Under the pieces are notes generated by a model. It worked only from the letters and a program-made list of their open reading frames with translations, did not search any database and was not told the origin of the DNA. From Alphaproteobacteria bacterium (GTDB lineage: Bacteria; Pseudomonadota; Alphaproteobacteria; Rickettsiales; SXRF01), in NCBI GenBank assembly GCA_013288305.1, contig JABDCD010000001.1:4923-68922 (forward strand): a DNA stretch of 64,000 nt, read 5' to 3'. The translations under genes were made by a program, and so were the position numbers. Shown here in pieces: positions 24,846-49,148 of this stretch. Numbering within the stretch: position 1 is the first letter of the stretch; each line of letters begins with the position of its first letter.

Positions 24846-26920
<2,075 letters not shown>

Positions 26921-26921
<1 letters not shown>

Positions 26922-26954
26922 ATCCTGTGGGCCGCGAAGCGGCAGCACAGGATC
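26921..26954. repeat. ATCCTG hairpin 1 directly after the fusA stop
   Basis: aatcctgtgggccgcgaagcggcagcacaggatc. Confidence 0.85.
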
Positions 26955-26961
26955 TGGGAAA

Positions 26962-27123: not shown

Positions 27124-27127
27124 ACGA

Positions 27128-27157
27128 GATACTGCGCAGGCTTCGCCTCGCAGGATT
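27128..27157. repeat. ATCCTG hairpin 2 (degenerate), upstream of tuf
   Basis: gatactgcgcaggcttcgcctcgcaggatt. Confidence 0.8.
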
Positions 27158-27175
27158 GAAACGAGGAGCACAATT

Positions 27176-28366: not shown

Positions 28367-28374
28367 GAGGAGTT

Positions 28375-28656
28375 ATGATTGAATCTAACAATAAGAGGGA
28401 AACTGCGCTGGTAAGACGCATAAAAGCTGCGACTGATCCGGCGAAACAATCCGAATTTCCACTTGATAAGGCTTTAGTGTTGAATGCCGCGCTTCAGCCT
28501 ATTGCTGAAGCAGTAGACGCACTTTCTGAAAGAGTGCGGCAGATCGAGTCTCATCTCGGTATTGAGCCACCGAGTACTGCAAGTGCCACCGATTTTTTAA
28601 GAGACCGTAGAAAAGCTGAGAAACGTGGTCTTGGCACTAACGGAACAGCTAGGTAA
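28375..28656 (+). CDS. hypothetical protein (AT-shifted orphan between tuf and rpsJ)
   Basis: 93-aa ORF with AGGAGG 5 nt upstream of the ATG. Its stop is 3 nt before the rpsJ ATG. Confidence 0.6.
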
Positions 28657-28659
28657 TTT

Positions 28660-28977
28660 ATGCAAAACCAGAAAATCAGAATTTGGCTCAAGGCTTTCGA
28701 CCACCGCGTGCTCGACCAGAGCACGGCGGAGATCGTGAGCACGGCCAAGCGCACCGGTGCAAATGTGGTGGGGCCGATTCCGCTGCCGCGCCGCATTCAG
28801 CGTTATACGGTCAACCGCTCGCCGCACATCGACAAGAAATCGCGCGAGCAGTTCGAAATCCGCACGCACAAGCGCCTGATCGACATTCTCGATCCGACGC
28901 CGCAGACGGTCGATGCGCTGATGAAATTGGATTTGGCCTCGGGCGTGGATATTAAGATTAAGGCGGAGGCGGCTTAG
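28660..28977 (+). CDS. rpsJ: 30S ribosomal protein S10
   Basis: [18 protein letters not shown]...[23 protein letters not shown]. Confidence 0.98.
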
Positions 28978-28981
28978 TACT

Positions 28982-29039
28982 AATCCTGTGGGCGCGAAGC
29001 GCAGCACAGGATCCTGCGCAGGCTTCGCCTCGCAGGATT
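28982..29039. repeat. bipartite ATCCTG hairpin repeat, rpsJ|rplC
   Basis: aatcctgtgggcgcgaagcgcagcacaggatcctgcgcaggcttcgcctcgcaggattt. Confidence 0.88.
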
Positions 29040-29055
29040 TTGAGAGGAAAGAATT

Positions 29056-29793
29056 ATGAGAACCGGACTGATAGCGAAAAAACTGGGCATGACGACCGTC
29101 TATGGCGACGCGGGCGAGGAAACGCCTGTGACCGTTTTGCAGGTGGAAAACTGCCAGGTCGTGGCGCAGAAGACTTTAGGCAGAGACGGCTATACCGCCG
29201 TGCAGCTGGGCGTCGGCGTGGCCAAGGCAAAAAACACCAGCAAAAGTTTGCGCGGTCATTATGCCAAGGCCAAAGTCGAACCCAAGCGCAAGCTCGCCGA
29301 ATTCCGCGTCGCCGAAAACGCGATTCTCGAGCCGGGCGTCGAGCTCGTCGCCAGCCATTTCGTGCCGGGACAATATGTCGATGTCTCCGGCGACACCGTC
29401 GGCAAGGGCTTCGCGGGCGTGATGAAGCGCTGGAATTTCGCCGGGCTGGAAGCGTCGCACGGCGTGTCGGTATCGCACCGCTCGCACGGATCGACCGGCC
29501 AGCGCCAGGATCCGGGCCGCACCTTCAAAGGCAAGAAAATGGCCGGGCACATGGGCACGCGCCGCCGCACCGTGCAGAATCTGGAAATCATGCAGGTCGA
29601 TGACGAGCAGGGCGTGATCATGGTCAAGGGCGCCGTGCCGGGCGCAGAAAACGGTTACGTGCTGGTCAAGGACGCGGTCAAAAAAGGCGCGCACCCGAAA
29701 GCGCCGTATCCGGCGGGTCTTCGGCAAAGTCCTGTGAGCGCCGAAGGCGCTGCACAGGATCCAGCGCAAGATACTCAGGAGGCCAAAAACTAG
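29056..29793 (+). CDS. rplC: 50S ribosomal protein L3 (C-terminal tail reads through a repeat)
   Basis: [16 protein letters not shown]...[13 protein letters not shown]. Confidence 0.97.
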
Positions 29794-29826
29794 ATCCTGC
29801 GCAATCGCAGAGCGATTCGCAGGATT
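29728..29826. repeat. bipartite ATCCTG hairpin repeat, rplC 3' end|rplD
   Basis: agtcctgtgagcgccgaaggcgctgcacaggatc lies in frame in rplC, followed by gatcctgcgcaatcgcagagcgattcgcaggatt. Confidence 0.88.
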
Positions 29827-29841
29827 TGTACGGAGATAATT

Positions 29842-30459
29842 ATGAAAACCAAAGTCATCACACTGGAAAACAAAGCCGCGGGCGAGATCGAACTCTCCAA
29901 GGAGATTTTCGGCCTCGACGTGCGGCAGGACATTCTGCACCGCATGGTCGAGTGGCAGCGCGCCAAAAAACAGGCGGGCACGCACAAGACGAAAACCATC
30001 AGCGAAATTCAGGGCACCACGAAAAAGCCGTGGAAGCAAAAAGGCACCGGCAACGCCCGTGCCGGCAGCTTGCGCTCGCCGCAGTTCCGCGGTGGCGCTA
30101 CGATTTTCGGCCCCGTCGTGCGCAGCCATGCGCAGGGCCTCAACAAAAAATTCCGCAAGCTGGCGCTCAAAATGGCGCTCTCGGCCAAGCACAAGGAAGG
30201 CGCGTTGTTCATCTTGGAGAACGCGCAGATGAAAAAACCGCAGACCAAGGCCATCGCCGCGTCGTTCAAGAAAAACGGCTGGGACAAGCCGCTCATCATC
30301 GACGGCACGCTGGACGTGGCCTTCGCCAAGGCGGCGCGCAATATCAAGCATGTCGACGTGCTGCCCGGCATCGGCGCCAACGTCTACGACATCCTGCGCC
30401 ACAAGCAGCTGGTGCTGACCAAGGATGCCATCGCGCAGCTGGAAGAGAGGCTCAAATGA
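29842..30459 (+). CDS. rplD: 50S ribosomal protein L4
   Basis: [25 protein letters not shown]. Confidence 0.97.
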
Positions 30460-30797
30460 AACTCGGACGCAAAAAGAAAGATGCTACAGCCGCCGCCCCG
30501 AACGCGCGCGCCTATCATTACGACATTATCGTCTCGCCGGTGATAACGGAGAAATCCACCGCCGCCTCTGAGCATAACAAGGTGCTGTTCAACGTGCATC
30601 TGGACGCCAGCAAGGCCGACATCAAATCGGCGGTGGAAGCGCTGTTCAACGTGAAAGTCGCCAAGGTCAACACGCTGGTGCGCCAGGGCAAGACCAAGCG
30701 TTTCAAGAACGTCATGGGCAAGCATTCGGACGTCAAAAAAGCGATCATCACGCTGGTCGCAGGCCAGACGATTAATTTAGAGGGCGGAGCGAGATAA
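30456..30797 (+). CDS. rplW: 50S ribosomal protein L23
   Basis: [14 protein letters not shown]...NKVLFNV. Its start overlaps the rplD stop (ATGA). It is the 3' part of the long track ORF 29826..30797. Confidence 0.93.
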
Positions 30798-30798
30798 C

Positions 30799-31626
30799 AT
30801 GGCACTCAAATCATTCAAACCCACCACCGCCGCGCAGCGCCAGCTGGTCATCGTTGACCGCTCGGAGTTGCATAAGGGCAAGCCGGTCAAGACGCTGACC
30901 GAAGGCTACAACAAATCCGGCGGGCGCAATAATAACGGGCGGCTGACGGCTTTCCGCGTCGGCGGCGGGCACAAAAAAGCCTACCGCGTCATCGATTTCA
31001 AGCGCCGCAAATTCGACATGCCGGCGGTAGTCGAGCGGCTGGAATACGACCCCAACCGCACCTGTTTCATCGCGCTGATCAAATACCAGGACGGCGAGCA
31101 GGCCTACATCATCGCGCCGCAGCGTATCGCCATCGGCGACAGCGTCATCTCGTCCGACAAGGCCGACATCAAGCCCGGCAACGCTATGCATATCAAAAGC
31201 ATCCCCGTCGGTACCATCATCCACAACGTCGAAATGAAGGAAGGCAAAGGCGGCCAACTCGCGCGCGCCGCCGGAACCTATGTGCAGCTCGTCGGCAAGG
31301 ACGGCGGCTTCGCGCAGGTCAAGCTGCGTTCGGGCGAAGTGCGCCAGATTCGCGGCGAATGTTTGGCCACCATCGGCGCGGTCAGCAATCCCGACCATCA
31401 GAACATCGTCATCGGCAAGGCCGGACGCTCGCGCTGGCTAGGCATCCGCCCATGCGTGCGCGGCGTCGCCATGAACCCGGTCGACCATCCGCACGGCGGC
31501 GGCGAAGGCCGCACCTCCGGCGGCCGCCACCCGGTAACGCCGTGGGGCAAAGGCACCAAGGGCACCAAGACGCGCTCGCGGAAAAAGAAGAACAAAATGA
31601 TTCTCAAGAATCGCCACGGCAAATAG
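30799..31626 (+). CDS. rplB: 50S ribosomal protein L2
   Basis: [15 protein letters not shown]...[14 protein letters not shown]. Confidence 0.98.
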
Positions 31627-31636
31627 GGAGTAAATT

Positions 31637-31933
31637 ATGGCACGTTCAGTTTGGAAAGGCCCGTTCGTCGATGGCTATCTGCTCAAGAAAGCGGATGTGG
31701 CACGCGCGTCGGGAAAGAACCAGATTATCAAGACCTGGTCGCGGCGTTCGACGATTCTGCCGCAGTTCGTGGGGCTGGTGTTCGGCGTTTATAACGGCAA
31801 GAAGTTTATTCCGGTGTCGGTGAACGAAGACATGATCGGCCACAAGCTGGGCGAGTTTGCGCCGACGCGCATCTTCATCGCCCACAGCGCGGCGGAGAAA
31901 AAGTCGGACAAACCGGCGGAGAAGAAGGATTAG
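31637..31933 (+). CDS. rpsS: 30S ribosomal protein S19
   Basis: [18 protein letters not shown]...[11 protein letters not shown]. Confidence 0.97.
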
Positions 31934-31937
31934 TATC

Positions 31938-32016
31938 AATCCTGTGAGCCGCGAAAGCGGCTGCACAGGATCAAAGGTAACAGATCCTGCGCAATCGCTT
32001 CGCGATTCGCAGGATT
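31938..32016. repeat. bipartite ATCCTG hairpin repeat, rpsS|rplV
   Basis: aatcctgtgagccgcgaaagcggctgcacaggatc + gatcctgcgcaatcgcttcgcgattcgcaggatt. Confidence 0.9.
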
Positions 32017-32028
32017 AGGGAGAAGAAT

Positions 32029-32514
32029 ATGAGCAAGAAAAGTTTAGAGCGCCAACTGGAGGCAACGGAAGCCAAAGCGGTCATCAACCGCCTGCGCATT
32101 TCGCCGCGCAAGTTGAACCTGGTGGCGGGCTTGATCCGCGGCATGGATGTCAGCAGCGCGCTGACGCAGCTTTCTTTCAGCGGCAAGCGCATTGCCAATG
32201 ACGTGCGGAAGGGGCTGCAATCGGCCATCGCCAATGCCGAGAATAACCATAATCTGAACGTCGATTCGCTCTATGTGAAAGAGGCCTATGTCGGCAAGAA
32301 CATCGTCATGAAGCGCATGCACACGCGCGGCCGCGGCCGCTCGGCGCGCATCTTGAAACCGTTCGCCAATTTGACGCTGATCGTGCGCGAGCGCGGCGAG
32401 GAAAGTATCAATCCTGTGAGCCGTAAGGCTGCACGGGATCAAGCGAAAAAGTCGAAAGATCCTGTGCAGCGCAAAAAGCGCTCACAGGATTCAAAGAAAA
32501 AGGAGTCCAACTAA
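32029..32514 (+). CDS. rplV: 50S ribosomal protein L22 (long repeat-derived C-terminal tail)
   Basis: [20 protein letters not shown]. The tail from about 32404 is encoded by ATCCTG hairpins. Confidence 0.95.
32410..32491. repeat. bipartite ATCCTG hairpin repeat translated as the rplV C-terminal tail
   Basis: aatcctgtgagccgtaaggctgcacgggatc + gatcctgtgcagcgcaaaaagcgctcacaggatt. Confidence 0.88.
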
Positions 32515-33227
32515 TGGGTCAGAAAGTAAACGCAATCAGCTTCCGCGTCGGCGTCAACAAGAATTGGGATTCGCGCTGGTACGCCAATGATGCCAATTAT
32601 GCCGACCGGTTGCACGAGGATCTGCAGATCACCAAGTATCTGAAAAAGACGCTCGATGCCGCCGGCGTGAGCAAAATCGTCATCGAGCGCCCGACCAAAA
32701 AGGCGCACGTCACGATCCATACGGCGCGTCCCGGCGTGGTGATCGGCAAGAAGGGCGCCGACATCGACAAGATCAAAAAGGACCTCGCCCAATTCACCAA
32801 GGACGAGATCCACGTCAACATCGTGCCGGTGCCCAAGCCCGAGCTGGACGCCACGCTGATCGCCGAATCCGTGGCGCAGCAATTGGAAAAGCGCGTCGCC
32901 TTCCGCCGCGCCATGAAACGCGCCGTGCAGTCGTGCCTGCGTTTGGGCGCGCTCGGCATCCGCATCAACGTCAGCGGCCGCCTCGGCGGCGCCGAAATCG
33001 CGCGCATGGAATGGTACCGCGAGGGCCGCGTGCCGCTGCACACGCTGCGCGCCGACGTCGATTACGGCGTCGCCGAAGCCAAAACCACCTACGGCGTCAT
33101 CGGCGTCAAAGTATGGGTGTTCAAGGGCGAGATCATCGGCAAGAAAAAAGACACGATACATGAGGAACCGGCGGTGGCGAATGAAAATCTGCCGCCTGTG
33201 GAACCGACGCTGGAAACCAAGGAATAA
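32514..33227 (+). CDS. rpsC: 30S ribosomal protein S3
   Basis: [24 protein letters not shown]; KH domain. Confidence 0.98.
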
Positions 33228-33239
33228 CGAGCAACGCAT

Positions 33240-33653
33240 ATGATGAGTCCTAAAAAAACCAAGTACCGCAAGGCGCATAAAGGCCGCATCCGCGGCAACG
33301 CCAAGGGCGGCTTTACGCTGAATTTCGGCGAGTATGGCTTAAAAGCCCTGCAGCCGGAGCGCGTCACGGCGCGGCAGATCGAGGCGGCGCGGCGCGCCAT
33401 TTCGCGCCACGTCAAGCGCGTCGGGCGCATGTGGATCCGCATATTCCCCGACCTGCCGGTGACCAAAAAACCGGCCGAAGTGCGCATGGGCAGCGGCAAG
33501 GGCAGCGTGGAATTCTGGGCCTGCCGCGTCGAGCCGGGCCGCATCATGTTCGAGATCGACGGCGTGCCGGAAGCCGTGGCGCGCGAAGCGTTCGACCGCG
33601 CCAGCGCCAAGCTGCCGATCAAGACCAAATTTGTTGCCAGATTAGCGGAGTAA
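33240..33653 (+). CDS. rplP: 50S ribosomal protein L16
   Basis: [13 protein letters not shown]...[12 protein letters not shown]. Confidence 0.97.
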
Positions 33654-33656
33654 ACT

Positions 33657-33941
33657 ATGAAAATCGCCGAATTACGCGCCAAGAGCGCCGAAGAATTGAA
33701 AGACCTGGTGCTGTCGCTCAAGAAAGAACAGTTCAACCTGCGGATGCAGGCGGCCACCGGTGCGCTGGAAAATAAAGGCCGCTTCAAGATCGCCCGCCGC
33801 ACCATCGCGCGCGCGAAAACTTTATTGGGTGAAACGCCGGGAGCGGTGAAGGCTCCGTCTGCGCCTAAGGCCAAGACTGAGAAAAAGGCTGCGCCGGAGA
33901 AGGCCAAAAAGACCGTAAAAGCCAAGAAAGAAAAGGAATAG
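33657..33941 (+). CDS. rpmC: 50S ribosomal protein L29 (Lys/Ala-rich C-terminal extension)
   Basis: ELRAKSAEELKDLVLSLKKEQFNLRMQ. Confidence 0.93.
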   Translation: MKIAELRAKSAEELKDLVLSLKKEQFNLRMQAATGALENKGRFKIARRTIARAKTLLGETPGAVKAPSAPKAKTEKKAAPEKAKKTVKAKKEKE

Positions 33942-33944
33942 CCT

Positions 33945-34175
33945 ATGCCGAAACGAGTATTGACCGGAGTCGTCGTCAGCGACAAGAACGAGAAAACGGT
34001 GACCGTGCGCGTTGACCGCCGCATGTCGCACCCGATTTACAAAAAAACCATCCAGCGCTCGAAAAAATACGCGGCGCACGACGAGAAGGAACAGTTCAAG
34101 GTCGGCGACAAGGTACAGATCATCGAATCCAAGCCCATCTCCAAGACCAAGCGCTGGGCTGTGGTGTATGAATAA
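33945..34175 (+). CDS. rpsQ: 30S ribosomal protein S17
   Basis: [21 protein letters not shown]...HPIYKK. Confidence 0.97.
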
Positions 34176-34241
34176 TAGGTTCTAGGTGCTAGAGGCTAGG
34201 TTCTAGTTTTAACTAGCACCTAGAACCTAGCCCCTAGCACC
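34176..34241. repeat. tandem-heptamer-arm hairpin, family G (TAGGTTC), rpsQ|rplN
   Basis: taggttctaggtgctagaggctaggttctag tttt aactagcacctagaacctagcccctagcacc. Confidence 0.88.
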
Positions 34242-34264
34242 TTAATGAAAAAACAGAGGAATTT

Positions 34265-34633
34265 ATGATACAGCAACAAACCAATCTCGAAGTCGCCGAC
34301 AATTCCGGTGCGCGGCGTGTGATGTGCATCAAGGTATTGGGCGGTTCGCAGCGGCGGTACGGCTCGGTCGGCGACGTCATCGTCGTCTCGATCAAGGACG
34401 CCATTCCGCGCGGCAAGGTCAAAAAAGGCGAGGTGCACAAGGCCGTCATCGTGCGCACGCGCCGCGATATCCGCCGTCCCGACGGCAGCACGATCCGTTT
34501 CGACAAGAACGCAGCGGTGCTGCTCACGGCGCAAAACGAGCCGATCGGCACGCGCATCTTCGGACCCGTAACGCGCGAACTGCGCGCCAAGCAGTTCATG
34601 AAGATCGTGTCGCTGGCGCCGGAGGTATTATGA
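34265..34633 (+). CDS. rplN: 50S ribosomal protein L14
   Basis: [28 protein letters not shown]. Confidence 0.98.
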
Positions 34634-34690
34634 GGTTCTAGGGACTGGGTTCTAGGTTCTAGTAGCACCTAGCCCCTAGAACCTAGCACC
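34634..34690. repeat. family G hairpin, rplN|rplX
   Basis: ggttctagggactgggttctaggttctag tagcacctagcccctagaacctagcacc. Confidence 0.88.
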
Positions 34691-34712
34691 TAAATTTATA
34701 AGGAATGAGAAA

Positions 34713-35033
34713 ATGACAAAGGCAAAGTTTAAAGTAAAAAAAGGCGACGAAGTCATCGTCATCGCCGGCCGCGAAAAAGGCAAAAAGGGTAAGATCACGC
34801 AGGTGATCACCGAGTCGTCGCGCGTCGTCGTCGAGGGTGTCAACAAGGTGAAGCGCCACCAGAAACCGTCCAAGCTTTCCGGCGGCGGCATCGTCGAGAA
34901 AGAAATGTCGCTGCACGTGTCCAACGTCATGCTGCTCGACCCCAAATCGGGCAAGGGCACGCGCGTCGGCTATAAAATCGAAGGCGAGCGCAAGCTGCGC
35001 ATCGCGCGGAGTTCAGGAGCACCAATCCTGTGA
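34713..35033 (+). CDS. rplX: 50S ribosomal protein L24
   Basis: KVKKGDEVIVIAGREKGKKGKI; KOW motif. Confidence 0.96.
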   Translation: MTKAKFKVKKGDEVIVIAGREKGKKGKITQVITESSRVVVEGVNKVKRHQKPSKLSGGGIVEKEMSLHVSNVMLLDPKSGKGTRVGYKIEGERKLRIARSSGAPIL

Positions 35034-35083
35034 GGCGTGAGCCTGCACAGGATCCTGTGCAGTCGCTTCGCGCCTCGCAGGAC
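35024..35083. repeat. bipartite ATCCTG hairpin repeat, rplX 3' end|rplE
   Basis: aatcctgtgaggcgtgagcctgcacaggatcctgtgcagtcgcttcgcgcctcgcaggact. Confidence 0.85.
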
Positions 35084-35108
35084 TAAGTAAATAGAGAAGG
35101 AAAAGAAT

Positions 35109-35711
35109 ATGGCTAAAACAAATGCAATGAAAAAAGATCCTGCGCCGCCTGGCGGCTCGCAGGATAAATACACGCCGCGCCTCCAGGCCGCCTACGAAAA
35201 AGAGGTGCGTGCGGCGCTGCAGAAGCAGTTCAATTACAAGAACGCCATGCAGGTGCCCAAGCTCGACAAAATCGTCATCAACATGGGCGTCGGCGAAAAC
35301 GTCAACGACAGCAAAACCATCCAGGCGGCGGTCAGCGACATGACGTTGATTGCCGGCCAGAAGCCGCTCATCACCAAGTCGAAAAAAGCCATCGCCAGCT
35401 TCAAGCTGCGCGAAAACCTGGCCATCGGCTGCAAGGTGACGCTGCGCAAGCAGAAGATGTACGAGTTCCTTGACCGGCTGATCAACACCGCCCTGCCGCG
35501 CGTGCGCGATTTCCGCGGCGTGAAAAACAACAGCTTCGACGGCCGCGGCAATTACGCGCTCGGCCTCAAAGAGCAAATCGTGTTCCCCGAGATCAATTAC
35601 GACAAAATCGATCAGGTGCGCGGTATGGACATCATCATCTGCACCACCGCGGGCACCGACGCCGAGGCGAAGGCATTGCTCACCGGCTTCAACATGCCTT
35701 TCATTAAATAG
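35109..35711 (+). CDS. rplE: 50S ribosomal protein L5 (N-terminal extension contains a translated hairpin repeat)
   Basis: [13 protein letters not shown]...[17 protein letters not shown]. There is no ATG downstream of the repeat at 35136-35165, so the repeat must be translated. Confidence 0.95.
35136..35165. repeat. single ATCCTG hairpin inside the rplE 5' coding region
   Basis: gatcctgcgccgcctggcggctcgcaggat, which encodes [10 protein letters not shown]. Confidence 0.85.
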
Positions 35712-35728
35712 AGACGAGTGAGGTGAAT

Positions 35729-35986
35729 ATGTCGATCAATGTCAGTAAAGCGAATGAGCAGATGGAACAGGATTTGCCACTATACCCGGAGAGGCAAAAA
35801 GATGAAAGCTGGGTAGCTTATGTTGAGAACGGTCAGGATGGAGTCAAGAGATTTGGTTTCCATAAAGATAGGGATAAACTATATGCGGCATTGCATAAAA
35901 AAGGCTATACGGATGCTCAGCTGCTGGTCAGCCGTTTCATGCCGCGTGACGACAGTCCTATAGAAGAATATCTTTTGAATAGATAA
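35729..35986 (+). CDS. hypothetical protein (AT-shifted orphan between rplE and rpsN)
   Basis: GAGGTG lies 5 nt upstream of ATG 35729; the track alternative is GTG 35723. 85-87 aa with no motif I recognise. Confidence 0.55.
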   Translation: MSINVSKANEQMEQDLPLYPERQKDESWVAYVENGQDGVKRFGFHKDRDKLYAALHKKGYTDAQLLVSRFMPRDDSPIEEYLLNR

Positions 35987-36004
35987 TTTTAAAGAGAGGT
36001 TATT

Positions 36005-36310
36005 GTGGCTAAAAAAAGTTCGATCAATAAAGGTAAAAACCGCGACAAGCTGGTGAAAAAATTCGCCGTCAAGCGCGCTGCGCTCAAAAAAATTATTATG
36101 AAGCGCGACCTGGCGTTCGACGAGCGCCTGCAGGCCCAGATCGCATTGTCGAAACTGCCGCGCAACAGCAGCAAAGTGCGCCACCGCAATCGCTGTGAGC
36201 TGACCGGCCGCGCGCGCGGCACCTATCGCAAATTTAAATTATCGCGCATCAAATTGCGCGAACTTGGCTCGTTCGGCCGCATTCCGGGGTTGACGAAAGC
36301 GAGTTGGTAG
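36005..36310 (+). CDS. rpsN: 30S ribosomal protein S14
   Basis: GTG start. [25 protein letters not shown]. Confidence 0.96.
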
Positions 36311-36318
36311 AGAGTGTA

Positions 36319-36393
36319 AATCCTGTGAGCCGCGAGGCTGCACAGGATCTAGGAAAAAGAGATCCTGCGCAATCGCATGGCGATTCGCAGGAT
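36319..36393. repeat. bipartite ATCCTG hairpin repeat, rpsN|rpsH
   Basis: aatcctgtgagccgcgaggctgcacaggatc + gatcctgcgcaatcgcatggcgattcgcaggat. Confidence 0.9.
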
Positions 36394-36413
36394 GTAACGA
36401 AGGAGAAGATACT

Positions 36414-36812
36414 ATGTCAATGAACTATAGATTAGCCGACATGCTCGCTCTGATCAAGAACGGCCAGCAGGCTCGCCTTGCCACGGTGCGCTGCCAGGCG
36501 TCGCATTTTCTCGGCGACGTGCTTGACGTACTCAAGAACGAGGGCTTCATCAACGATTACCGCCGCGTCGACCTCGAAAACAACAAGTCCGAATTCGAGA
36601 TCGATCTGAAATACCACGAGGGTGAGCGTGTGATTAAGGAAATCAAGTGCATCTCCAAGCCGGGACGGCGCGTCTATTACAAAATCTCGCGCCTGCCGAA
36701 ATTTTTCAACGGGCTGGGCATCGCCATTTTGTCCACCTCCAAAGGCGTGATGTCGGATTTCGACGCCCGCGTCGCCGGGGTGGGTGGTGAGATATTGTGC
36801 AGTGTGTTTTAG
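36414..36812 (+). CDS. rpsH: 30S ribosomal protein S8
   Basis: ADMLALIKNGQQA...GIAILSTSKGVMSD. Confidence 0.97.
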   Translation: MSMNYRLADMLALIKNGQQARLATVRCQASHFLGDVLDVLKNEGFINDYRRVDLENNKSEFEIDLKYHEGERVIKEIKCISKPGRRVYYKISRLPKFFNGLGIAILSTSKGVMSDFDARVAGVGGEILCSVF

Positions 36813-36816
36813 TTTA

Positions 36817-36873
36817 AATCCTGCGAGCCGCAAGGCTGCGCAGGATACTGTGCAGGCTTCGCCTCACAGGATT
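36817..36873. repeat. bipartite ATCCTG hairpin repeat, rpsH|rplF
   Basis: aatcctgcgagccgcaaggctgcgcaggatactgtgcaggcttcgcctcacaggattt. Confidence 0.88.
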
Positions 36874-36889
36874 TGTAAAGGAGAATAAA

Positions 36890-37423
36890 ATGTCAAGAGT
36901 AGGCAAACAGCCGGTAGCAATCCCTCAAGGCGTCACCGTTACGGTGACCGGCCCGGACGTCGCCGTCAAGGGCGGCAAGGGTGAACTCAAATTCCGCCTG
37001 GCGCCGGAAGTCACCGTCGAAGTCAAGGACGGCAAGGCCTGGGTCAAGCCCGTGAGCAAAGCCGCCCGCGCCCGCATGATGTGGGGCACGTCGCGCCGCC
37101 AGCTTGGCAACATGATCGAAGGCGTGTCGAAAGGCTTCACCACGCGCATGGAAATCCAGGGCGTCGGCTTCCGCGCCAGCGCCGATAAAAATTATCTCAG
37201 CATGGCGCTGGGCTTTTCGCACGAAATCAAATACGCTATTCCCGCCGGCATCGAAATCAAATGCGCCAAGCCGACCGAAATCACCATCAGCGGCTCCGAC
37301 CGCAAGCTGGTCGGCCAGGTCGCCGCGGAAATCCGCTCGCTGCGCAAGCCGGAGCCCTACAAGGGCAAGGGCGTGCGCTATGAAGGGGAATATGTGAGAA
37401 TGAAGGAAGGGAAGAAGAAATAG
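36890..37423 (+). CDS. rplF: 50S ribosomal protein L6
   Basis: [17 protein letters not shown]...[11 protein letters not shown]. Confidence 0.97.
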
Positions 37424-37427
37424 CTTA

Positions 37428-37520
37428 AATCCTGTGAGCCGCGTAAGCGGCTGCACAGGATCATGTAAAACTATTAAAAATGAAAGGATCCTGCGCAACT
37501 GCTCCGCAGTTCGCAGGATT
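37428..37520. repeat. bipartite ATCCTG hairpin repeat, rplF|rplR
   Basis: aatcctgtgagccgcgtaagcggctgcacaggatc + 24-nt AT-rich spacer + gatcctgcgcaactgctccgcagttcgcaggatt. Confidence 0.9.
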
Positions 37521-37529
37521 GATGGAAAT

Positions 37530-37889
37530 ATGACCCAATCCGTAAAATCCAAAGCCCTGTTCGCCCGCCGCAAGCAGCGCGTGCGCACGCACATCAAGAA
37601 GCATGGCCGTGTGCGCCTCAGCGTGTTCCGTTCGGGCAAGCATATCTATGCCCAGCTGATCGACGACGGCAAGGGCGTCACGCTCGCCGCCGCCTCGTCG
37701 CTGGAAAAGGGCAAAAAAGGCAAAGCGGGCGCTACCATCGAATCGGCCAAGGCTGTGGGCGAAGCGATCGCCAAGGCAGCGCAGAAAGCCAACGTCAAAG
37801 AAGTCGTGTTCGACCGCGGCGGCTACCTCTTCCACGGGCGCGTCAAGGCGCTGGCGGACGCGGCGCGCGCCGGCGGATTATCATTCTAA
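37530..37889 (+). CDS. rplR: 50S ribosomal protein L18
   Basis: [13 protein letters not shown]...[18 protein letters not shown]...[20 protein letters not shown]. Start chosen downstream of the repeat at 37428-37520. Confidence 0.95.
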
Positions 37890-37901
37890 CGGAGAAATAA
37901 A

Positions 37902-38477
37902 ATGGCACGTGAACAACGCAACGAAGAACGCAAAGACCGTGAAGGCAGCGAGCTGATCGACAAATTAGTGTCGATCAACCGCGTCGCCAAGGTGGTGAAG
38001 GGCGGTCGGCGCTTCGGTTTCGCGGCGCTGGTCGTCGTCGGCGACGGCAAGGGCAAGGTCGGCTACGGCTCGGGCAAGGCCAAGGAAGTCTCCGACGCCA
38101 TGCGCAAGGCGCTCGACGACGCCAAGAAAAAAATGGTGCGCATCCCGCTACGCGAAGGCCGCACGCTGCACCACGATCTCTATGGCCGCTTCGGCGCCGG
38201 AAAAGTCATCATCCGCACCGCGCCCGTCGGCACCGGCATTATCGCCGGCGGCCCGATGCGTGCCGTGTTCGAGGCACTGGGCGTGCAGGATGTCGTCGCC
38301 AAGTCGGTCGGCACCAGCAACCCGCACAACATGCTCAAAGCCACCTTCAACGCGCTGCACGACATGCGCTCGCCACGCGCGGTGGCCGCCAAGCGCGGCA
38401 AAAAAGTCGGCGAAATCGTCGAACGCCGCGAGGGCAAACCGGCGGAGGAGAATAATAATAAGGAGAAGAAAGCCTAG
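37902..38477 (+). CDS. rpsE: 30S ribosomal protein S5
   Basis: [32 protein letters not shown]. Confidence 0.97.
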
Positions 38478-38484
38478 GCGTCGT

Positions 38485-38573
38485 CGCCCGAATCGCTCTT
38501 GCGATTCTAGGGCGAACTAGAAACTGGATCCCCCTAGAATTTTGCAAGGGCAAAATTCGGAGGATGACGGAAA
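38485..38573. repeat. degenerate two-hairpin element, rpsE|rpmD
   Basis: cgcccgaatcgctcttgcgattctagggcg and ccccctagaattttgcaagggcaaaattcggagg. The stems are imperfect. Confidence 0.55.
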
Positions 38574-38594
38574 TTGATAATAAAGGAATGCAGT

Positions 38595-38879
38595 ATGACA
38601 AGTGAAGCAGCAAAAAAAGAAACCAAGCCGAAAACGGCAAAGCCCGTTGCGGAAAAACCCGCACCGAAAAAACCTGAGGTAAAAAAAGCTCCCTCCGGTG
38701 CAACGGTAAAGATAACGCAAACCACCGGCAGCATCGCGCGCCGCTGGGACCAGGAAGCGACGCTGATCGGGTTGGGCCTGAACAAGCGCCATAAGACGCG
38801 CGTGCTGCAGGATACGCCGGAAGTGCGCGGCATGATTTATAAGGTACGGCATTTGGTGAAGGTGGAGGCAGTTCAATGA
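38595..38879 (+). CDS. rpmD: 50S ribosomal protein L30 (Lys/Pro/Ala-rich N-terminal extension)
   Basis: VKITQTTGSIARRWDQEATLIGLGLNKRHKTRVLQDTPEVRGMIYKVRHLV. Confidence 0.9.
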   Translation: MTSEAAKKETKPKTAKPVAEKPAPKKPEVKKAPSGATVKITQTTGSIARRWDQEATLIGLGLNKRHKTRVLQDTPEVRGMIYKVRHLVKVEAVQ

Positions 38880-39253
38880 GCAAACTCAAGCCCGTTCCTC
38901 CTGCATTTGAAGTGGTTTTCAGTGGAATTGAAAAACCGTTAAACACACGTTCTGTTCGTGGCGGAACATTTGCTGAACAGTTGGCAGCGGGACACATGGA
39001 AGATGCCTACCTACACCTGAAATATTCCGAGCGTGTTAGCGGGATTGATATAGATAAGGTACTGGCGCCATTGAGGGATGCTTTAGAAAATATCTACGAA
39101 AGAATTAGTTTAACATATCATATGGGTACCATAATGTCAGCCGCGCAGCCAGGTCAAAAGCCATTGGGTTCTATGGTTGAAACATTTGATGAGGCCATAA
39201 GATTACGGCTAGACCGCTATTTCCCAAAAGAACAAGTAAGAGCACGAGGATAA
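38876..39253 (+). CDS. hypothetical protein (AT-shifted orphan between rpmD and rplO)
   Basis: Its start overlaps the rpmD stop (ATGA), with GGAGG 9 nt upstream. Its stop is 4 nt before the rplO ATG. 125 aa with no motif I recognise. Confidence 0.6.
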
Positions 39254-39257
39254 TTTT

Positions 39258-39722
39258 ATGCAACTCAACGAACTCAAATCCAATCCCGGCTCGCACCATC
39301 GCAAGATGCGCGTGGGTCGCGGCATCGGCAGCGGCAAGGGCAAAACCTGCGGCCGCGGCGGCAAAGGACAAACCGCGCGCACCGGCGTGCGCATCAACGG
39401 CTTCGAGGGCGGCCAGACGCCGATCCATCGCCGCCTGCCCAAGCGCGGCTTCAACAACCCGACGCGCAAGGAAATCGCCACCGTCAATCTCGGCGCCATC
39501 GAAAAAGCCATCACCGCAGGCAAACTCGACGCCAAGAAGGACATCAACCTGGACGCGCTGAAAGCCGCCGGATTGCTGCGCAAAAATGCTTCGGAAGTCA
39601 AACTGCTGGCCAAGGGCGAACTGAAAGCTAAGATTTCGCTGCACGTCAATTTTGCGTCTGAAGGCGCGAAGGCTGCGGTGGAGAAGGCGGGTGGCAGTGT
39701 CGTCATGAGTCATGGGTCATGA
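39258..39722 (+). CDS. rplO: 50S ribosomal protein L15 (last codons lie in a repeat arm)
   Basis: [21 protein letters not shown]. Confidence 0.97.
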
Positions 39723-39785
39723 GTCATGGGGTTCAAGCGATTCACTCATGACCAATGACCAAAAACCCATGACCCACTTATGACC
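39702..39785. repeat. family D hairpin spanning the rplO 3' end and the secY start codon
   Basis: gtcatgagtcatgggtcatgagtcatgggg ... ctcatgaccaatgaccaaaaacccatgacccacttatgacc. Confidence 0.88.
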
Positions 39786-41126
39786 ACCTCCGCCGCTGAA
39801 CGTCTCGCCGCCAACATGAATTTCGGGGTGTTCTCGCGCGCCACCGACCTGAAGAAGCGCCTGTGGTTTTTGCTGGGCGCGCTCATCGTCTGCCGCATCG
39901 GCACCTACATCCCCGTCCCCGGCATCGACCCGCACATCCTGGCCGAAATCTACGCCAAGCAGCAGGGCGGCGTGCTCGGCGTGTTCAACATGTTCACCGG
40001 CGGCGCGCTGTCGCGCATGAGCATTTTCGCGCTGGCCGTCATGCCCTATATCTCCTCCTCCATCATCATCCAGATCCTGACCGTCGCCGTGCCGCACCTG
40101 GCCACACTCAAAAAAGAAGGCGCGGCGGGCTACCGCAAGATCAACCAATATACGCGCTACGGCACGGTGGTGCTGGCCGCATTCCAGGGTTACGGCATCG
40201 CGGTGGGCCTGCAGGGCATGAGCGGTGCGCACGGCTCGGCGGTGATCGACCCCGGCGCGTTTTTCCTGTTCACCACGACGATAACGCTGGCCGGCGGCAC
40301 GCTGTTTTTAATGTGGCTGGGTGAGCAGATCACGGCGCGCGGCATCGGCAACGGCATCTCGATGATCATCTTCACCGGCATCATCGCCAACCTGCCCAAC
40401 GCCATCGGCCGGACATTGGAATTAGGCCGCACCGGCGTCATCTCGACGCCGTTCATTTTCCTGATTATTATCATCGTGCTGGGCTTGATCGCCTTCATCG
40501 TCTTCATGGAGCGCGCCCAGCGCCGCATCGTCGTGCAATACCCCAAACGCCAGCAGGGCAATAAAATGTTCGGCGGCGAAGCGACGCACATGCCGCTGAA
40601 ACTCAACACCTCCGGTGTCATCCCGCCCATCTTCGCCAGCTCGATTCTGCTGTTTCCGCTCACCATCGCCAGCTTCCATGCTAACGGCGGCACCGGCATC
40701 CTCGCCACCCTGAGCAGCTATCTCGCGCACGGCCAGCCGCTCTACATCGCCTGCTACGTCGCACTCATCGTGTTTTTCAGCTTCTTCTACACCTCCATCG
40801 TGTTCAACCCGGCCGAAAAAGCCGACGACCTCAAAAAAGGCGGCGGCTTCATCGCCGGCATCCGCCCCGGCCAGCAGACGGCGGAATATCTCGATTACGT
40901 GCTGACGCGGTTAACCGCGGTGGGCGCGCTTTACATCGCCCTGGTCTGCGCCATGCCGGAACTCTTCGTCGCTAAATATTCCGTGCCGTTCCAGCTCGGT
41001 GGCACCGGCCTCATGATCGTCGTCAACGTCACCATCGATTTCGTGACGCAGGTGCAGTCGCATCTCTTCGCGCACCAATATGAGGGCTTGATCAAAAAAG
41101 CGAAGCTGAAAGGGAGACTCAAATGA
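39780..41126 (+). CDS. secY: preprotein translocase subunit SecY
   Basis: [28 protein letters not shown]; 10-TM pattern. The ATG lies inside the right arm of the repeat at 39702-39785. Confidence 0.96.
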
Positions 41127-41794
41127 AGATCATTCTTTTAGGGCCGCCGGGCGCCGGCAAAGGCACGCAAGCGGATATTCTCAGGAAGAAGCTCAACATC
41201 GGCAAAATCGCTACCGGCGACATGCTGCGTGAGGCAGTGGCATCCGGCACGCCGCTGGGCAAGCAGGTGCAGGACATCATGGCCAAGGGCCATCTCGTGC
41301 CCGACAAAACGATGATCGATGTGCTGTTCGGCCGCATCCACAAGGCGGATTGCGCGCTGGGCTTTGTCCTCGACGGCTTTCCGCGCACGCTGGCGCAGGC
41401 CGAGGCGCTCGATAGGGCACTGGCCTTTGAGGACGCCGCTATCGACCGCGTCATCGAGTTAAAGGTGGATGACGAAAAGCTGATGAAGCGCATTGTCGGC
41501 CGCTATGCCTGCGCCAAATGCGGCGCCGGCTATCACGACAGCTTCAAGCGCCCGATGCAGGCGGGCGTGTGCGACGCCTGCGGCAGCAAGGAATTTATCC
41601 GTCGCGAGGATGACAAGGCGCAGACGGTGGCCAAGCGTCTGGAGACCTACCATATGCAGACCGAGCCGCTGCTCCCCTATTACCGCGTGCAAGGTAAGCT
41701 ACTGAGTGTCGACGGCATGGCGGAGATCGAGGAAGTAGCCCGGCAGATCGACGAAGTGATGGGAATGGGTAAAAAAAATGCGAAAAACAGTTGA
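41123..41794 (+). CDS. adk: adenylate kinase (Cys4 zinc-lid type)
   Basis: ILLGPPGAGKGTQA, and a lid with CAKCG...CDACG. Its start overlaps the secY stop (ATGA). Confidence 0.96.
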   Translation: MKIILLGPPGAGKGTQADILRKKLNIGKIATGDMLREAVASGTPLGKQVQDIMAKGHLVPDKTMIDVLFGRIHKADCALGFVLDGFPRTLAQAEALDRALAFEDAAIDRVIELKVDDEKLMKRIVGRYACAKCGAGYHDSFKRPMQAGVCDACGSKEFIRREDDKAQTVAKRLETYHMQTEPLLPYYRVQGKLLSVDGMAEIEEVARQIDEVMGMGKKNAKNS

Positions 41795-41840
41795 CGCGGC
41801 CGTAAATATGACTAAAATCCCCATTCCTTTTAACAAAATC

Positions 41841-41915
41841 GGGATTGGGGATTAGGGATTAGGGATTGGAAAATAATGATTTTTTCCCAATCCCCAATCC
41901 CCAATCCCCATCCCC
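41841..41915. repeat. tandem-heptamer-arm hairpin, family H (GGGATTR), adk|rpsM
   Basis: gggattggggattagggattagggattgg / aaaataatgatttttt / cccaatccccaatccccaatccccatcccc. Confidence 0.9.
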
Positions 41916-41930
41916 TAAAAAGAGGTTTCT

Positions 41931-42308
41931 GTGGCTCGTATCGCTGGCGTAAATATTCCCTCGGCCAAACGGCTCGACATCGCGCTGACCTATATTCACG
42001 GCATCGGCCACGTCAAGGCCGCCGAAATCTGCAAAAAGGCCGATCTGGGAGCGGAAAAACGCGTGCATCAGCTGACCGAATCGGAAGTCAGCCGCCTGCG
42101 CGAAATCATCGACCGCGACTACACGGTCGAGGGCGACCTGCGCCGCGAAGTGTCGATGAACATCAAGCGCCTGGTCGATCTCGGCTGCTACCGCGGCCTG
42201 CGCCACCGCAAAAAACTGCCCACCCGCGGCCAGCGCACGCATACTAATGCGAGAACCCGCAAGGGCAAGGCAAAGCCGATTGCGGGCAAGAAGATAGTTA
42301 CGAAGTAA
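41931..42308 (+). CDS. rpsM: 30S ribosomal protein S13
   Basis: GTG start. [10 protein letters not shown]...[26 protein letters not shown]. Confidence 0.96.
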
Positions 42309-42312
42309 AATT

Positions 42313-42404
42313 GGATGTGGGGATGTGGAAGGATGTGGAGATGTGGGGAATAAGAAAGATTTTTTCTTTCTCCACATCCCCACATCTCCATCTCCCCACA
42401 TCCC
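42313..42404. repeat. family A hairpin, rpsM|rpsK
   Basis: ggatgtggggatgtggaaggatgtggagatgtgggg / aataagaaagattttttctttc / tccacatccccacatctccatctccccacatccc. Confidence 0.9.
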
Positions 42405-42418
42405 TCTAGGAGTTTAGA

Positions 42419-42847
42419 ATGGCCAAAGAAGCAACCGCAACCAAAGACGCCGCCGCCCCCGCCGCCGGTCCGGCGAAAATTAAAAAGAAAGAGCGCAAGA
42501 ACATCACCACCGGCGTGGCGCATGTCAACGCCTCGTTCAACAACACCATCGTCACCATTACGGACACGCAGGGCAACACCGTGGCATGGTCGTCGGCCGG
42601 GCATCACGGTTTCAAAGGCTCGCGCAAATCGACGCCTTACGCCGCGCAGGTCACAGCCGAGAGTGCCGGAAAGAAAGCGCAGGAGCACGGCATGAAAACG
42701 CTGGCGGTCCTGGTCAAAGGCCCCGGCTCCGGCCGCGAATCGGCCCTGCGCGCGCTGCAGGCGGTAGGTTTCCAGGTCACGTCGATTAAAGACGTCACTC
42801 CCGTGCCGCATAACGGTTGTCGGCCGCCGAAAAGACGGAGAGTTTAA
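42419..42847 (+). CDS. rpsK: 30S ribosomal protein S11
   Basis: [19 protein letters not shown]...[18 protein letters not shown]. Confidence 0.97.
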
Positions 42848-42853
42848 GAAGAC

Positions 42854-42919
42854 GTACCCGGTACACGGTACTCGGTACCCGGTGAAGATTTTGAGTACCG
42901 TGTACTGAGTACCATGTAC
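42854..42919. repeat. tandem-heptamer-arm hairpin, family I (GGTACNC), rpsK|rpoA
   Basis: gtacccggtacacggtactcggtacccggtg / aagattttga / gtaccgtgtactgagtaccatgtac. Confidence 0.88.
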
Positions 42920-42940
42920 GACTTAATTTTAGGAGCAAAC

Positions 42941-43948
42941 ATGTTAGCAAAAAACTGGCAAGACCTGATCAAACCGTCGAAGCTCGATATCGCGGCTTCC
43001 AAAAGCAACCCGCGCCAGGCGACGATTGTGGCCGAGCCGCTGGAGCGTGGCTTCGGCCATACGCTGGGCGTGGCGCTGCGCCGCATCTTGCTGTCGTCGC
43101 TGCAGGGCGCGGCCGTGACCTCGGTCAAAATCGAGGGCGTGCTGCATGAATTCTCATCCGTCCCCGGCGTGCGCGAGGACGTCACCGACATCATCCTCAA
43201 CATCAAGGAACTGCGCCTCAAGGCCGGAAGCGGCGACAAAAAGCGCATCACGCTCACCGCCAGCGGCCCCGGCGAAGTCAAGGCCGGCGCCATCGACGGC
43301 GATGTCGAGATCATCAACAAGGATCACGTCATCTGCACGCTCGACAAGGGCGCCAAGCTTAACATGGAAATGACCGTCGAAACCGGCAAGGGCTACGTCC
43401 GCGCCAGCAAGCAGAGCGACGCCGCCATCGGCCTCATCCCGGTCGATGCGCTGTTCTCGCCCGTGGTCAAGGTATCGTACAAGGTCGACAACGCCCGCGT
43501 CGGCCAGATCACCGACTACGACAAACTGTCGATGACAGTCGAAACCGACGGCTCGATGACGGCCGAGGACGCCGTGGCGCTGGCCGCACGCATCCTGCAG
43601 GATCAGCTGCAGCTCTTCATCAACTTCGAGGAATCGAAGCTGGAGAAAAAAGAAGAAGCCAAGCCCGAGCTGCCCTTCAGCCCGTACCTGCTCAAGAAGG
43701 TCTACGACCTCGACGAGCTTTCCGTGCGCGCTACCAACTGCCTCAAGAACGACAATATCGTCTATGTCGGCGACCTCGTGCAGAAGACCGAAAGCGAAAT
43801 GCTCAAGACGCCCAATTTCGGCCGCAAATCGCTCAACGAAATCAAGGAAAAACTGGCCAAGATCGGCCTCAAGTTCGGCATGGAAGTCACCGGCTGGCCG
43901 CCCGAGAATATTGAGGAGTTGGCGAGGAAGTATGAGGATCCGTATTGA
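42941..43948 (+). CDS. rpoA: DNA-directed RNA polymerase subunit alpha
   Basis: [15 protein letters not shown]...[18 protein letters not shown] lies 6 nt upstream of ATG 42941. The track start 42914 lies inside a repeat arm. Confidence 0.95.
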
Positions 43949-43953
43949 GTATA

Positions 43954-44013
43954 AATCCTGTGAGCCGTAAGGCTGCACAGGATCCTGCGCAATCGCTTGG
44001 CGCTTCGCAGGAT
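43954..44013. repeat. bipartite ATCCTG hairpin repeat, rpoA|rplQ
   Basis: aatcctgtgagccgtaaggctgcacaggatcctgcgcaatcgcttggcgcttcgcaggattt. Confidence 0.9.
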
Positions 44014-48456: not shown

Positions 48457-48750
48457 ATGCGCACCAATATCATCGTCAATGACCGTCTGATGAAACAGGC
48501 CATGCAGCTATCCGGTCTGCATACCAAAAAATCGGTGGTGGAGGAAAGCCTCAAGCTTTTCGTGCAAATGCAGAAGCAAAAAAAGCTTTCCGCGTGGTTC
48601 AGAATACGTGGCAGGCAAAAGAGCGGACAGCCTTTGCCACAACCAGATCGGCTTTTGGCGCTTGCCGGGTCCATTAGTGATGAGGACGCTAATGGTATGA
48701 TGCGCGTTATTTATGAAGATCGTTCTGCGGATTGGGATGCGCGTACGTGA
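48457..48750 (+). CDS. vapB: VapB-type antitoxin (type II TA) with a C-terminal extension
   Basis: MRTNIIVNDRLMKQAMQLSGLHTKKSVVEESLKLFVQMQKQ. Confidence 0.75.
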   Translation: MRTNIIVNDRLMKQAMQLSGLHTKKSVVEESLKLFVQMQKQKKLSAWFRIRGRQKSGQPLPQPDRLLALAGSISDEDANGMMRVIYEDRSADWDART

Positions 48751-49148
48751 CGGGCTGCATCCTTGATAGCGATGTGCTCATCCAGTTGCTTCGTAAAGAC
48801 GCGAAAGCTGTCGGCGATATTGCATCTATCCCCATCCCGGCGCGCCACACCACTATCATTACCTGCTCTGAATTATTGTACGGCGCCTATAATTCCGCCG
48901 CTGTGGAAAGAAATCTTGCTGTTACGCACCAGCTATTGAATGAATTAACCATCTTGCCGCTAACTTACGAATGCTGCGAACAATACGGCGCGTTAAAAGC
49001 GTTGCTTCGCAAGCGGGGCATCACCATCGGCGACAAGGACTTATTGATTGCCGCTATTGCCGTCAGCCATAATCTTCCGATTTTTACTTATAATCTGCGT
49101 GACTTTGGGCGCGTTCCCGGCTTAAAGTTGCACCCGTTATCACGCTAA
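48732..49148 (+). CDS. vapC: PIN-domain ribonuclease toxin VapC
   Basis: ILDSDVLIQLL...DLLIAAIAVSHNLPIFTYNLRDF. The start is uncertain: TTG 48732, or GTG 48747 which overlaps the vapB stop. Confidence 0.78.
   Translation: MGCAYVTGCILDSDVLIQLLRKDAKAVGDIASIPIPARHTTIITCSELLYGAYNSAAVERNLAVTHQLLNELTILPLTYECCEQYGALKALLRKRGITIGDKDLLIAAIAVSHNLPIFTYNLRDFGRVPGLKLHPLSR

Follow-up and report, generated by a model that had tools for sequence, protein, structure and literature searches.

A small, AT-rich open reading frame lodged between rpmD and rplO in the spc operon of an alphaproteobacterium

The str-S10-spc-alpha cluster is a textbook case of gene order that has been frozen over billions of years and, to our knowledge, insertions within its operons are rare. 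The question addressed here is raised by one such insertion, in a stretch of 64,000 nucleotides (nt) from an uncultured alphaproteobacterium of the order Rickettsiales (GenBank assembly GCA_013288305.1, contig JABDCD010000001.1, positions 4,923 to 68,922 of the forward strand), which is referred to throughout as the window, and in which coordinates are counted from the first letter. In the spc operon of the window, an open reading frame (ORF) of 125 amino acids (38876–39253, + strand) separates rpmD from rplO, and it may be asked whether this insert ORF is a gene at all, whether its product belongs to the translation apparatus, and how it came to occupy such a position. The interpretation preferred here, with a probability of roughly 0.55, is that of a horizontally circulating accessory passenger gene, which has lodged in the rpmD–rplO junction and has become entrenched there through the ribosome-binding site of rplO.

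The insert ORF and its two junctions

The first-pass annotation of the window had described a 125-residue frame that overlaps the stop codon of rpmD and ends 4 nt before rplO, and the sequence bears this out, together with all the coordinates given at the time. The upstream gene, rpmD (38595–38879, + strand), encodes the 94-residue ribosomal protein L30 (Pfam PF00327, Ribosomal_L30; E = 3.7e-18), and ends with a TGA codon (38877–38879) that shares an ATGA overlap with the ATG of the insert ORF (38876–38878). A GGAGG Shine-Dalgarno (SD) motif lies within the 3' end of rpmD (38864–38868, + strand), 7 nt before this ATG; its presence had been noted correctly, and its spacing only approximately, as 9 nt. 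The ORF closes with TAA (39251–39253), and 4 nt (TTTT) separate this stop codon from the ATG at 39258 of rplO (39258–39722, + strand), which encodes the 154-residue ribosomal protein L15 (Pfam PF00828, Ribosomal_L27A; E = 9e-19). This exact L15 protein is recorded in NCBI, JGI, and Logan.

The last codons of the insert ORF, GCA CGA GGA (A-R-G), contain a GAGGA motif (39246–39250, + strand), and, given its placement 7 nt before the ATG of rplO, it is the insert that provides the SD of that gene. The 3' end of rpmD, GTGAAGGTGGAG, which serves the insert ORF here, serves rplO directly in the relatives that lack the insert. The order of the genes of the operon in the window, that is, rpsE (37902–38477), rpmD, rplO, secY (39780–41126), and adk, is the canonical alphaproteobacterial one. 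The tight coupling that had been proposed on both sides of the insert is upheld in the form of two coupling-type junctions, for which co-transcription and coupled translation would be the natural reading.

The 372-nt interior of the ORF remains open in 2.9e-4 of 200,000 shuffles, or in 9.6e-4 when any frame of the + strand is accepted, and the remaining five frames of the insert contain between 5 and 11 stop codons each. The odds of such an open frame, combined with an in-frame homologue and with the pattern of substitution between the two sequences (see below), mark the insert ORF as a real protein-coding gene, under a constraint that, to judge from the sequence, is moderate. The contrary view, that the frame is open by chance in inserted non-coding DNA, or that the assembly is chimeric, can draw on the atypical composition of the ORF and on its omission by three annotation pipelines. 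It is effectively refuted by the low probability of an open frame (3e-4), by the strong SD and ATG, by the protein-level homologue that a different sample has, in frame, at this very site, and by the presence of the same sequence in a second assembly. The latter, the Logan assembly of run SRR8432341 (L081), in which the insert sequence is 100% identical, was probably made from the same library or reads, rather than from an independent sample, and the exact copy that it contains excludes an artefact of the assembler. The RNA of the insert does not appear to be structured (minimum free energy z-score of +0.86), and has no match in Rfam at E values of up to 1; no promoter-like or terminator-like site was found on the + strand around the ORF.

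The composition of the insert ORF sets it apart from its neighbours. Its guanine-plus-cytosine (GC) content is 0.44, compared with about 0.62 in the flanks, and its GC content at third codon positions (GC3) is 0.36, compared with 0.72–0.85 in the flanking genes. The codon adaptation index (CAI) of the ORF is 0.26, versus 0.53–0.79 in the ribosomal protein genes and 0.65–0.78 in other core genes, and the values of the accessory set are 0.26 for a Fic gene, 0.27–0.40 for the other ORFs found at junctions of the ribosomal operons, and 0.34–0.44 for other accessory genes. The codon usage of the insert ORF is that of the AT-rich accessory gene pool of this genome. Such values lend no support to the initial proposal that the arrangement implies co-expression in stoichiometric amounts with L30 and L15, with a CAI of 0.26 against 0.53–0.79, and a GC3 of 0.36 against 0.75–0.85.

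As a separate observation, low-GC accessory genes lie amid the core genes elsewhere in the window, and include an ORF6N-domain gene (1119–1763), the Fic/DOC gene (8118–9338, − strand; GC3 0.29), a BrnA antitoxin gene (17795–18181), and a VapB-VapC pair (48457–49148). The genome is rich in accessory genes of the mobile or toxin-antitoxin type, the codon usage of which is the same as that of the junction ORFs.

A single homologue and a patchy distribution

An exhaustive HMMER search of 1.84 billion cluster representatives yielded a sole true homologue of the insert protein, P0001, a protein of 126 amino acids that is 39% identical to it from end to end, with an E value of 5.7e-12 against the whole library and of 3e-24 in the pairwise comparison. 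The gene for P0001 lies on a Logan contig of 1,028 bp (L082) from an independent metagenome run, ERR6862845, where it has a GC3 of 0.40 and occupies the same rpmD–rplO junction, 2 nt past rpmD and 1 nt ahead of rplO. The first-pass annotation had suggested that a homologue be sought at the same position in related genomes, and one is found in this second lineage. In L082, rpmD ends with TAA, followed by 2 nt before P0001, which indicates that the ATGA overlap of the window is the derived state. Both of the homologous ORFs start with ATGAGC and finish with an identical 10-nt block, GCACGAGGAT, and their overall nucleotide identity is 52%.

The description of the ORF as an orphan was nearly right, in that it matches no family, and has one homologue only across the searches of protein, genome, metagenome, viral, phage, and plasmid collections. 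A word-indexed protein search returned nothing with the single sequence, and retrieved P0001 alone with a profile. Peptide-pattern scans, the sensitivity of which is limited by the need for exact words of 7–8 residues, recovered no relative among the contigs of genomes, metagenomes, and viruses, and tblastn searches of phage and plasmid collections returned no match for the insert family. The second match of the exhaustive search, P0002, is a 444-residue, internally repetitive protein with five short matching stretches, and was rejected as spurious. No match for the insert ORF was found in Pfam or NCBIfam, both of which were checked at E values of up to 10, or in PHROG or PADLOC; P0001 is likewise without a match in Pfam or PADLOC, and no sequence in the PDB matches the insert ORF at E values of up to 10.

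By the method of Nei and Gojobori (NG86), the two homologues are separated by a nonsynonymous divergence (dN) of 0.61 and a synonymous divergence (dS) of 1.74, which is saturated, with a dN/dS ratio of about 0.35. Identity is highest at the second codon position (0.63), intermediate at the first (0.53), and lowest at the third (0.42). The dN of the insert ORF, 0.61, compares with 0.06–0.24 in the flanking genes, that is, a value 3–10 times higher, and the isoelectric point (pI) differs between the homologues (8.0 versus 5.9). As read from this pair of sequences, the insert protein is shown to be under moderate purifying selection, and to evolve several times faster than its neighbours.

The distribution of the family was established at two depths. 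A scan of species-representative genomes based on SecY revealed no close genome, the best match being a "Rickettsiales" metagenome-assembled genome with 74% identity, and at all of the 75 more distant alphaproteobacterial loci that contain the two genes, rplO starts 3–156 nt past rpmD, with no ORF between them. Closer relatives are known just as metagenome contigs, the L15 proteins of which are 75–87% identical to that of the window. On concatenated segments of the C-terminal part of S5, L30, and the N-terminal part of L15, these form two subclades, about 77–80% identical to each other: subclade A, which is that of the window, and subclade B, which is that of L082.

The insert family is found in one sampled lineage per subclade, and is absent from about 12 close relatives, which include the nearest neighbours in both subclades. 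In subclade A, the rpmD–rplO site is empty in L083 (3 nt) and in the P0012 contigs (4 nt), and holds an 85-nt hairpin of GTTGCTR heptamers in L085, a 115-nt spacer with ATCCTGYG...CRCAGGAT palindromes in L086 and L087, a 128-nt heptamer hairpin in L088, and an unrelated, AT-rich ORF of 87 amino acids (GC3 0.32) in L084. In subclade B, the spacer measures 23–29 nt in L089–L094, the nearest to L082, and 95 nt in L095. Of the pattern that had been named beforehand as telling against the original proposal, the first part, rpmD leading directly to rplO in relatives, is common, and the second, a decayed copy of the ORF elsewhere, was not seen.

The ORF of L084 has no significant overall similarity to the insert family (hhalign probability of 0.1%). 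Its last eight codons, which read GNVKRVAR, agree at 19 of 24 nt with the GKEQRVAR of the family, and this shared 3'-terminal stretch (..RVAR) reaches a weak local score (z = 3.3; 1 of 500 shuffles). The presence of this ORF, and of hairpin repeats in other relatives, makes the rpmD–rplO site an insertion hotspot.

Origin and role of the insert

A number of known classes of inserted DNA were compared with the insert. The promoterless state of the ORF is in keeping with an integron cassette, a class that fails here on the lack of an inverted repeat at or after the 3' end of the ORF, where just 4 nt remain before rplO. Free-standing homing endonuclease genes of the phage T4 type are also small, occupy one set intergenic position between conserved genes, and are present in some relatives and absent from others. 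The insert is similarly a small ORF at one conserved intergenic site, polymorphic in its presence, with the same boundaries in both homologues and empty sites in close relatives; unlike these genes, it has no nuclease domain (GIY-YIG, HNH, LAGLIDADG, or PD-(D/E)XK) that could be recognized by Pfam or PHROG, and was not found in the phage or viral collections. No PADLOC or Pfam model of a defence or toxin-antitoxin system matches the ORF, the neighbours of which are rpmD and rplO. Neither homologue matches the profiles PF05635 (23S_rRNA_IVP) or PF22296 (bAvd), and the alignment of the insert family with a PF05635 protein encoded in L084 has an hhalign probability of 0.45%. A candidate target-site duplication, formed by AACTCAAGCCCGTTCC at 38883 and AACTCAAATCCAATCC at 39271, agrees at 12 of 16 nt, and was set aside as indistinguishable from the chance two-copy repeats found nearby.

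In the mechanism that is envisaged for the passenger gene, the insert ORF would have no promoter of its own and would be transcribed within the spc mRNA, and the ribosomes that end rpmD, or that bind GGAGG in its 3' end, would initiate at the overlapping ATG. The synthesis of L15 would now rely on the SD carried by the insert in the last codons of the ORF, and this would lead to its entrenchment, in that only a precise deletion, restoring the junction of SD and ATG, would be viable, and any imprecise loss would be lethal. The takeover of the SD supply of rplO would also explain the conserved terminal block and the A-R-G tail. Spread between related lineages would probably proceed by homologous recombination through the conserved flanks in rpmD and rplO.

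The composition and codon usage of the ORF, its high dN, the unconserved pI, the patchy distribution, and its replacement in L084 point to the accessory pool rather than to a component of the ribosome. Alternatively, the protein could be associated with the ribosome and specific to the lineage, for instance as an additional 50S protein, an assembly factor, or a regulator of the synthesis of L15 or SecY, and be kept at the junction by selection for co-production. Such a role would account for the occupation of the same junction in two subclades with flanking proteins that are about 77% identical, for the purifying selection on the ORF, and for a coupling so tight on both sides that the 3' end of the ORF doubles as the SD of rplO. 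It is quite unlikely, however, given that, in both subclades, the closest relatives do not have the ORF, that its CAI and GC3 are unlike those of any ribosomal protein gene here, that its dN is 3–10 times that of the flanks and its pI is not conserved, and that it matches no family of ribosomal proteins or ribosome factors. The ribosome-linked component first proposed is weakened above all by the distribution, with rpmD followed by rplO either directly or through a non-coding hairpin spacer in most close relatives, and an unrelated ORF at the site in L084. We conclude that the insert protein is probably not a stoichiometric component of the ribosome, but a tolerated or niche-beneficial small protein, which is predicted to be helical, and which would take advantage of one of the most strongly expressed mRNAs of the cell. 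The expectation that the product must be harmless or useful remains the right envelope, within which the evidence leans to a tolerated accessory passenger over a core function.

Vertical descent raises a different objection to the passenger gene, in the form of an old gene of the ancestor of both subclades, repeatedly lost by precise deletion, and now a decaying or neutral relic. The identical 5' (ATGAGC) and 3' (GCACGAGGAT) boundaries of the two homologues fit such a history, as does a dS in the ORF that is at least as high as that of the flanks, and the last eight codons that the ORF of L084 shares with the family would suggest an internal replacement in an inherited frame. This history is unlikely, since at least five independent precise losses would be needed on the identity matrix, an accessory-type composition would have been kept in both lineages despite saturated dS, and a pseudogene would not have a dN/dS of about 0.35. 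A birth de novo, in which an AT-rich spacer between two cistrons of this highly transcribed operon would have expanded and given rise to the gene, is highly improbable. It would fit with the lack of any match beyond P0001, both in protein libraries whose representatives stand for about 15 billion proteins and in DNA collections of genomes, metagenomes, phages, and plasmids; the GC content of the ORF (0.44) is near that of the intergenic DNA of the operon (0.48), and the spacers of the clade are unusually long and variable. Against this, no non-coding precursor of comparable length is found at the site in relatives, where the longest spacer, of 128 nt, consists of hairpin repeats, the insert ORF has no repeat structure, the retention of its 125-residue length from end to end at 39% identity is that of an established protein, and bona fide foreign genes (PF05635 and PAP2) are present at equivalent junctions.

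Several findings weigh against a horizontally circulating passenger gene. The dS of the homologous pair (about 1.7, saturated) equals or exceeds that of the flanks (about 1.0), and saturated dS would be equally compatible with ancient vertical inheritance followed by many losses as with horizontal spread. The sharing of one site by two subclades, under what appears to be purifying selection, could mean that the gene has a genuine function linked to the site. The flanks of the insert have neither mobility machinery nor terminal repeats, nor a hairpin of the attC type, and the ORF was left uncalled on the contig of the window by NCBI, JGI, and Logan alike. The AlphaFold2 model, built on a two-sequence alignment, is helical, with four helices, and is unreliable, with a predicted local distance difference test (pLDDT) score of 47; a Foldseek search of the PDB with this low-confidence model gave a best probability of 0.06. 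Two members of the family are known, and the inferences on its distribution rest on about 15 contigs.

Ribosomal-operon junctions in the clade

The insert ORF is one case of a clade-wide colonization, in which small ORFs that are unrelated to one another, and palindromic repeats, have entered the junctions of ribosomal operons. Four further junction ORFs are present in the window, all of them on the + strand, low in GC, and tightly packed, at 3–18 nt from the next gene, and at least three have a clear SD and ATG. These are located between rpsL and rpsG (23839–24216; 125 amino acids), between fusA and tuf (26962–27123; 53 amino acids), where two palindromic repeats flank the ORF, which is the weakest case, between tuf and rpsJ (28375–28656; 93 amino acids), and between rplE and rpsN (35729–35986; 85 amino acids). 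None of the five junction ORFs of the window matches a family; they are mutually unrelated, and are absent from the other loci that were retrieved, and the two that are on record are singleton clusters.

The relatives carry different sets. In L084, a gene for a 130-residue "23S rRNA intervening sequence protein", of the PF05635 and bAvd-like type (6522–6914; E = 2e-38), is found between rplE and rpsN, together with an 84-residue ORF between rplR and rpsE, a 144-residue ORF past rplQ, and two tandem adk genes. A gene of the PAP2 family separates rplO from secY in L083, and L088 has unknown ORFs of 154 amino acids between rplC and rplD, and of 110 amino acids between rpsQ and rplN, each of which overlaps the next start codon. 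In L095 and a P0012 contig, no more than one small unknown ORF is present, past rplQ. As regards annotation, the ORFs at 38876–39253, 23839–24216, and 28375–28656 are uncalled by NCBI, JGI, and Logan, while the adjacent ribosomal genes are called; the gene callers evidently reject such ORFs, and surveys of protein databases will under-count the inserts as a result.

Two classes of repeat occupy the spacers. The first is a palindrome, ATCCTGYG-N(8-30)-CRCAGGAT, with 19 copies in the window versus 0.01 expected, of which 17 lie in the ribosomal region (24709–44013) and two at 18995–19075, often in pairs and in intercistronic spacers. The family is common to relatives of both subclades (L086, L087, L093, and L094). 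Some copies lie inside coding sequence, in rplE (35136–35165), in rplV (32410–32442 and 32459–32490), and at the end of rplX (35025–35053), and those that are translated in frame contribute 10 residues to the N-terminus of L5, and two stretches of 11 residues to the C-terminal tail of L22. The second class consists of long hairpins with arms built of degenerate heptamers in tandem, and the heptamer changes from site to site (GGTTCTA, GTCATGA/GTCATGG, GGGATTA, GGATGTG, GGTACNC, GTTGCTR, and GTGACTA were recorded). In the window, these hairpins are located at 34176–34264, 34634–34712, 39702–39779, 41795–41930, 42309–42418, and 42848–42913, and further examples are found in L085 (990–1070), L088 (9873–10000), and L084 (6483–6515). 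The hairpin past rplO starts within the gene, and encodes the C-terminus of L15 (..VMSHGS).

The 117-nt spacer between rpsE and rpmD (38478–38594) contains an imperfect palindrome, ATTCTAGGGCGAACTAG / CTGGATCCCCCTAGAAT, at 38504–38540, which is related to the hairpins of the GGTTCTAGG heptamer. The ribosomal proteins themselves have unusual ends in this clade. L30 has an N-terminal extension of 35–45 residues, rich in Lys, Pro, and Ala (window, 38595–38705; L082, 238–375; L001, about 3100–3220), and S5, L22, L29, and L17 likewise have basic or low-complexity tails.

Two bolder readings of the locus are, even when taken jointly, a long shot. In one of these, small promoterless genes would form a pool that turns over, with the intercistronic junctions of the str, S10, spc, and alpha operons as its landing pads, and with the palindromic and heptamer hairpins as sites of recombination or RNA processing, in an integron-like or operon-parasitic cassette system. 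In the other, the 125-residue protein would act in the ribosome or in translation, as a new accessory factor of the clade.

Among known systems, the nearest analogue of the insert is the ORF-bearing intervening sequence (IVS) of the 23S rRNA genes, such as that of Coxiella burnetii, a selfish sequence of 428 nt that encodes S23p (PMC4990558). The two have in common a foreign insert of roughly 400 nt with a small ORF (about 110–130 amino acids) in an operon of the translation apparatus, apparently acquired horizontally, and tolerated or neutral, and the gene between rplE and rpsN in L084 belongs to the IVS family itself (PF05635). Unlike the IVS, the insert lies between protein genes, with proper coupling by SD and ATG, and is not excised from an rRNA by RNase III; the insert family also has no sequence relationship to the IVS proteins, with no Pfam match, and a probability of less than 1% in the hhalign comparison with the protein of L084.

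Selfish-looking DNA is also tolerated in essential alphaproteobacterial genes in the form of the Rickettsia palindromic elements, of which Rickettsia bellii has 526, with 53 in protein-coding genes (PMC1458961). The palindromes of the window that are translated in rplE and rplV are similar in this respect; the insert ORF differs, in that it is neither palindromic nor repeated, and encodes a free-standing protein. The insertions that have been analysed in the str-S10-spc-alpha cluster of the Gammaproteobacteria and Bacilli are mostly found between operons (tusDCB, bfd-bfr, and ilv-leu), with nrdHEF within the rpoBC operon, and all of them are known metabolic genes (PMC8046335). These insertions are likewise foreign or extra genes that have entered the most conserved gene cluster of bacteria, whereas an orphan ORF that stands alone within the spc operon, coupled on both sides, is not described there. 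Selfish or accessory DNA in the operons of the translation apparatus is, by these analogies, already known, and what would be new here is the protein family and its coupled setting in the spc operon.

Taken singly, the insert ORF is a modest finding, and it is the clade-wide invasion of the ribosomal operons that is unusual. In this clade, the junctions within these operons have been taken repeatedly by unrelated orphan ORFs with an SD of their own, some of which also provide an SD to the essential gene that follows. If confirmed, this would provide a natural system for the study of how essential and highly expressed operons are exploited by selfish or accessory genes, which become entrenched in them, and of how much "noise" the ribosomal operons are able to tolerate.

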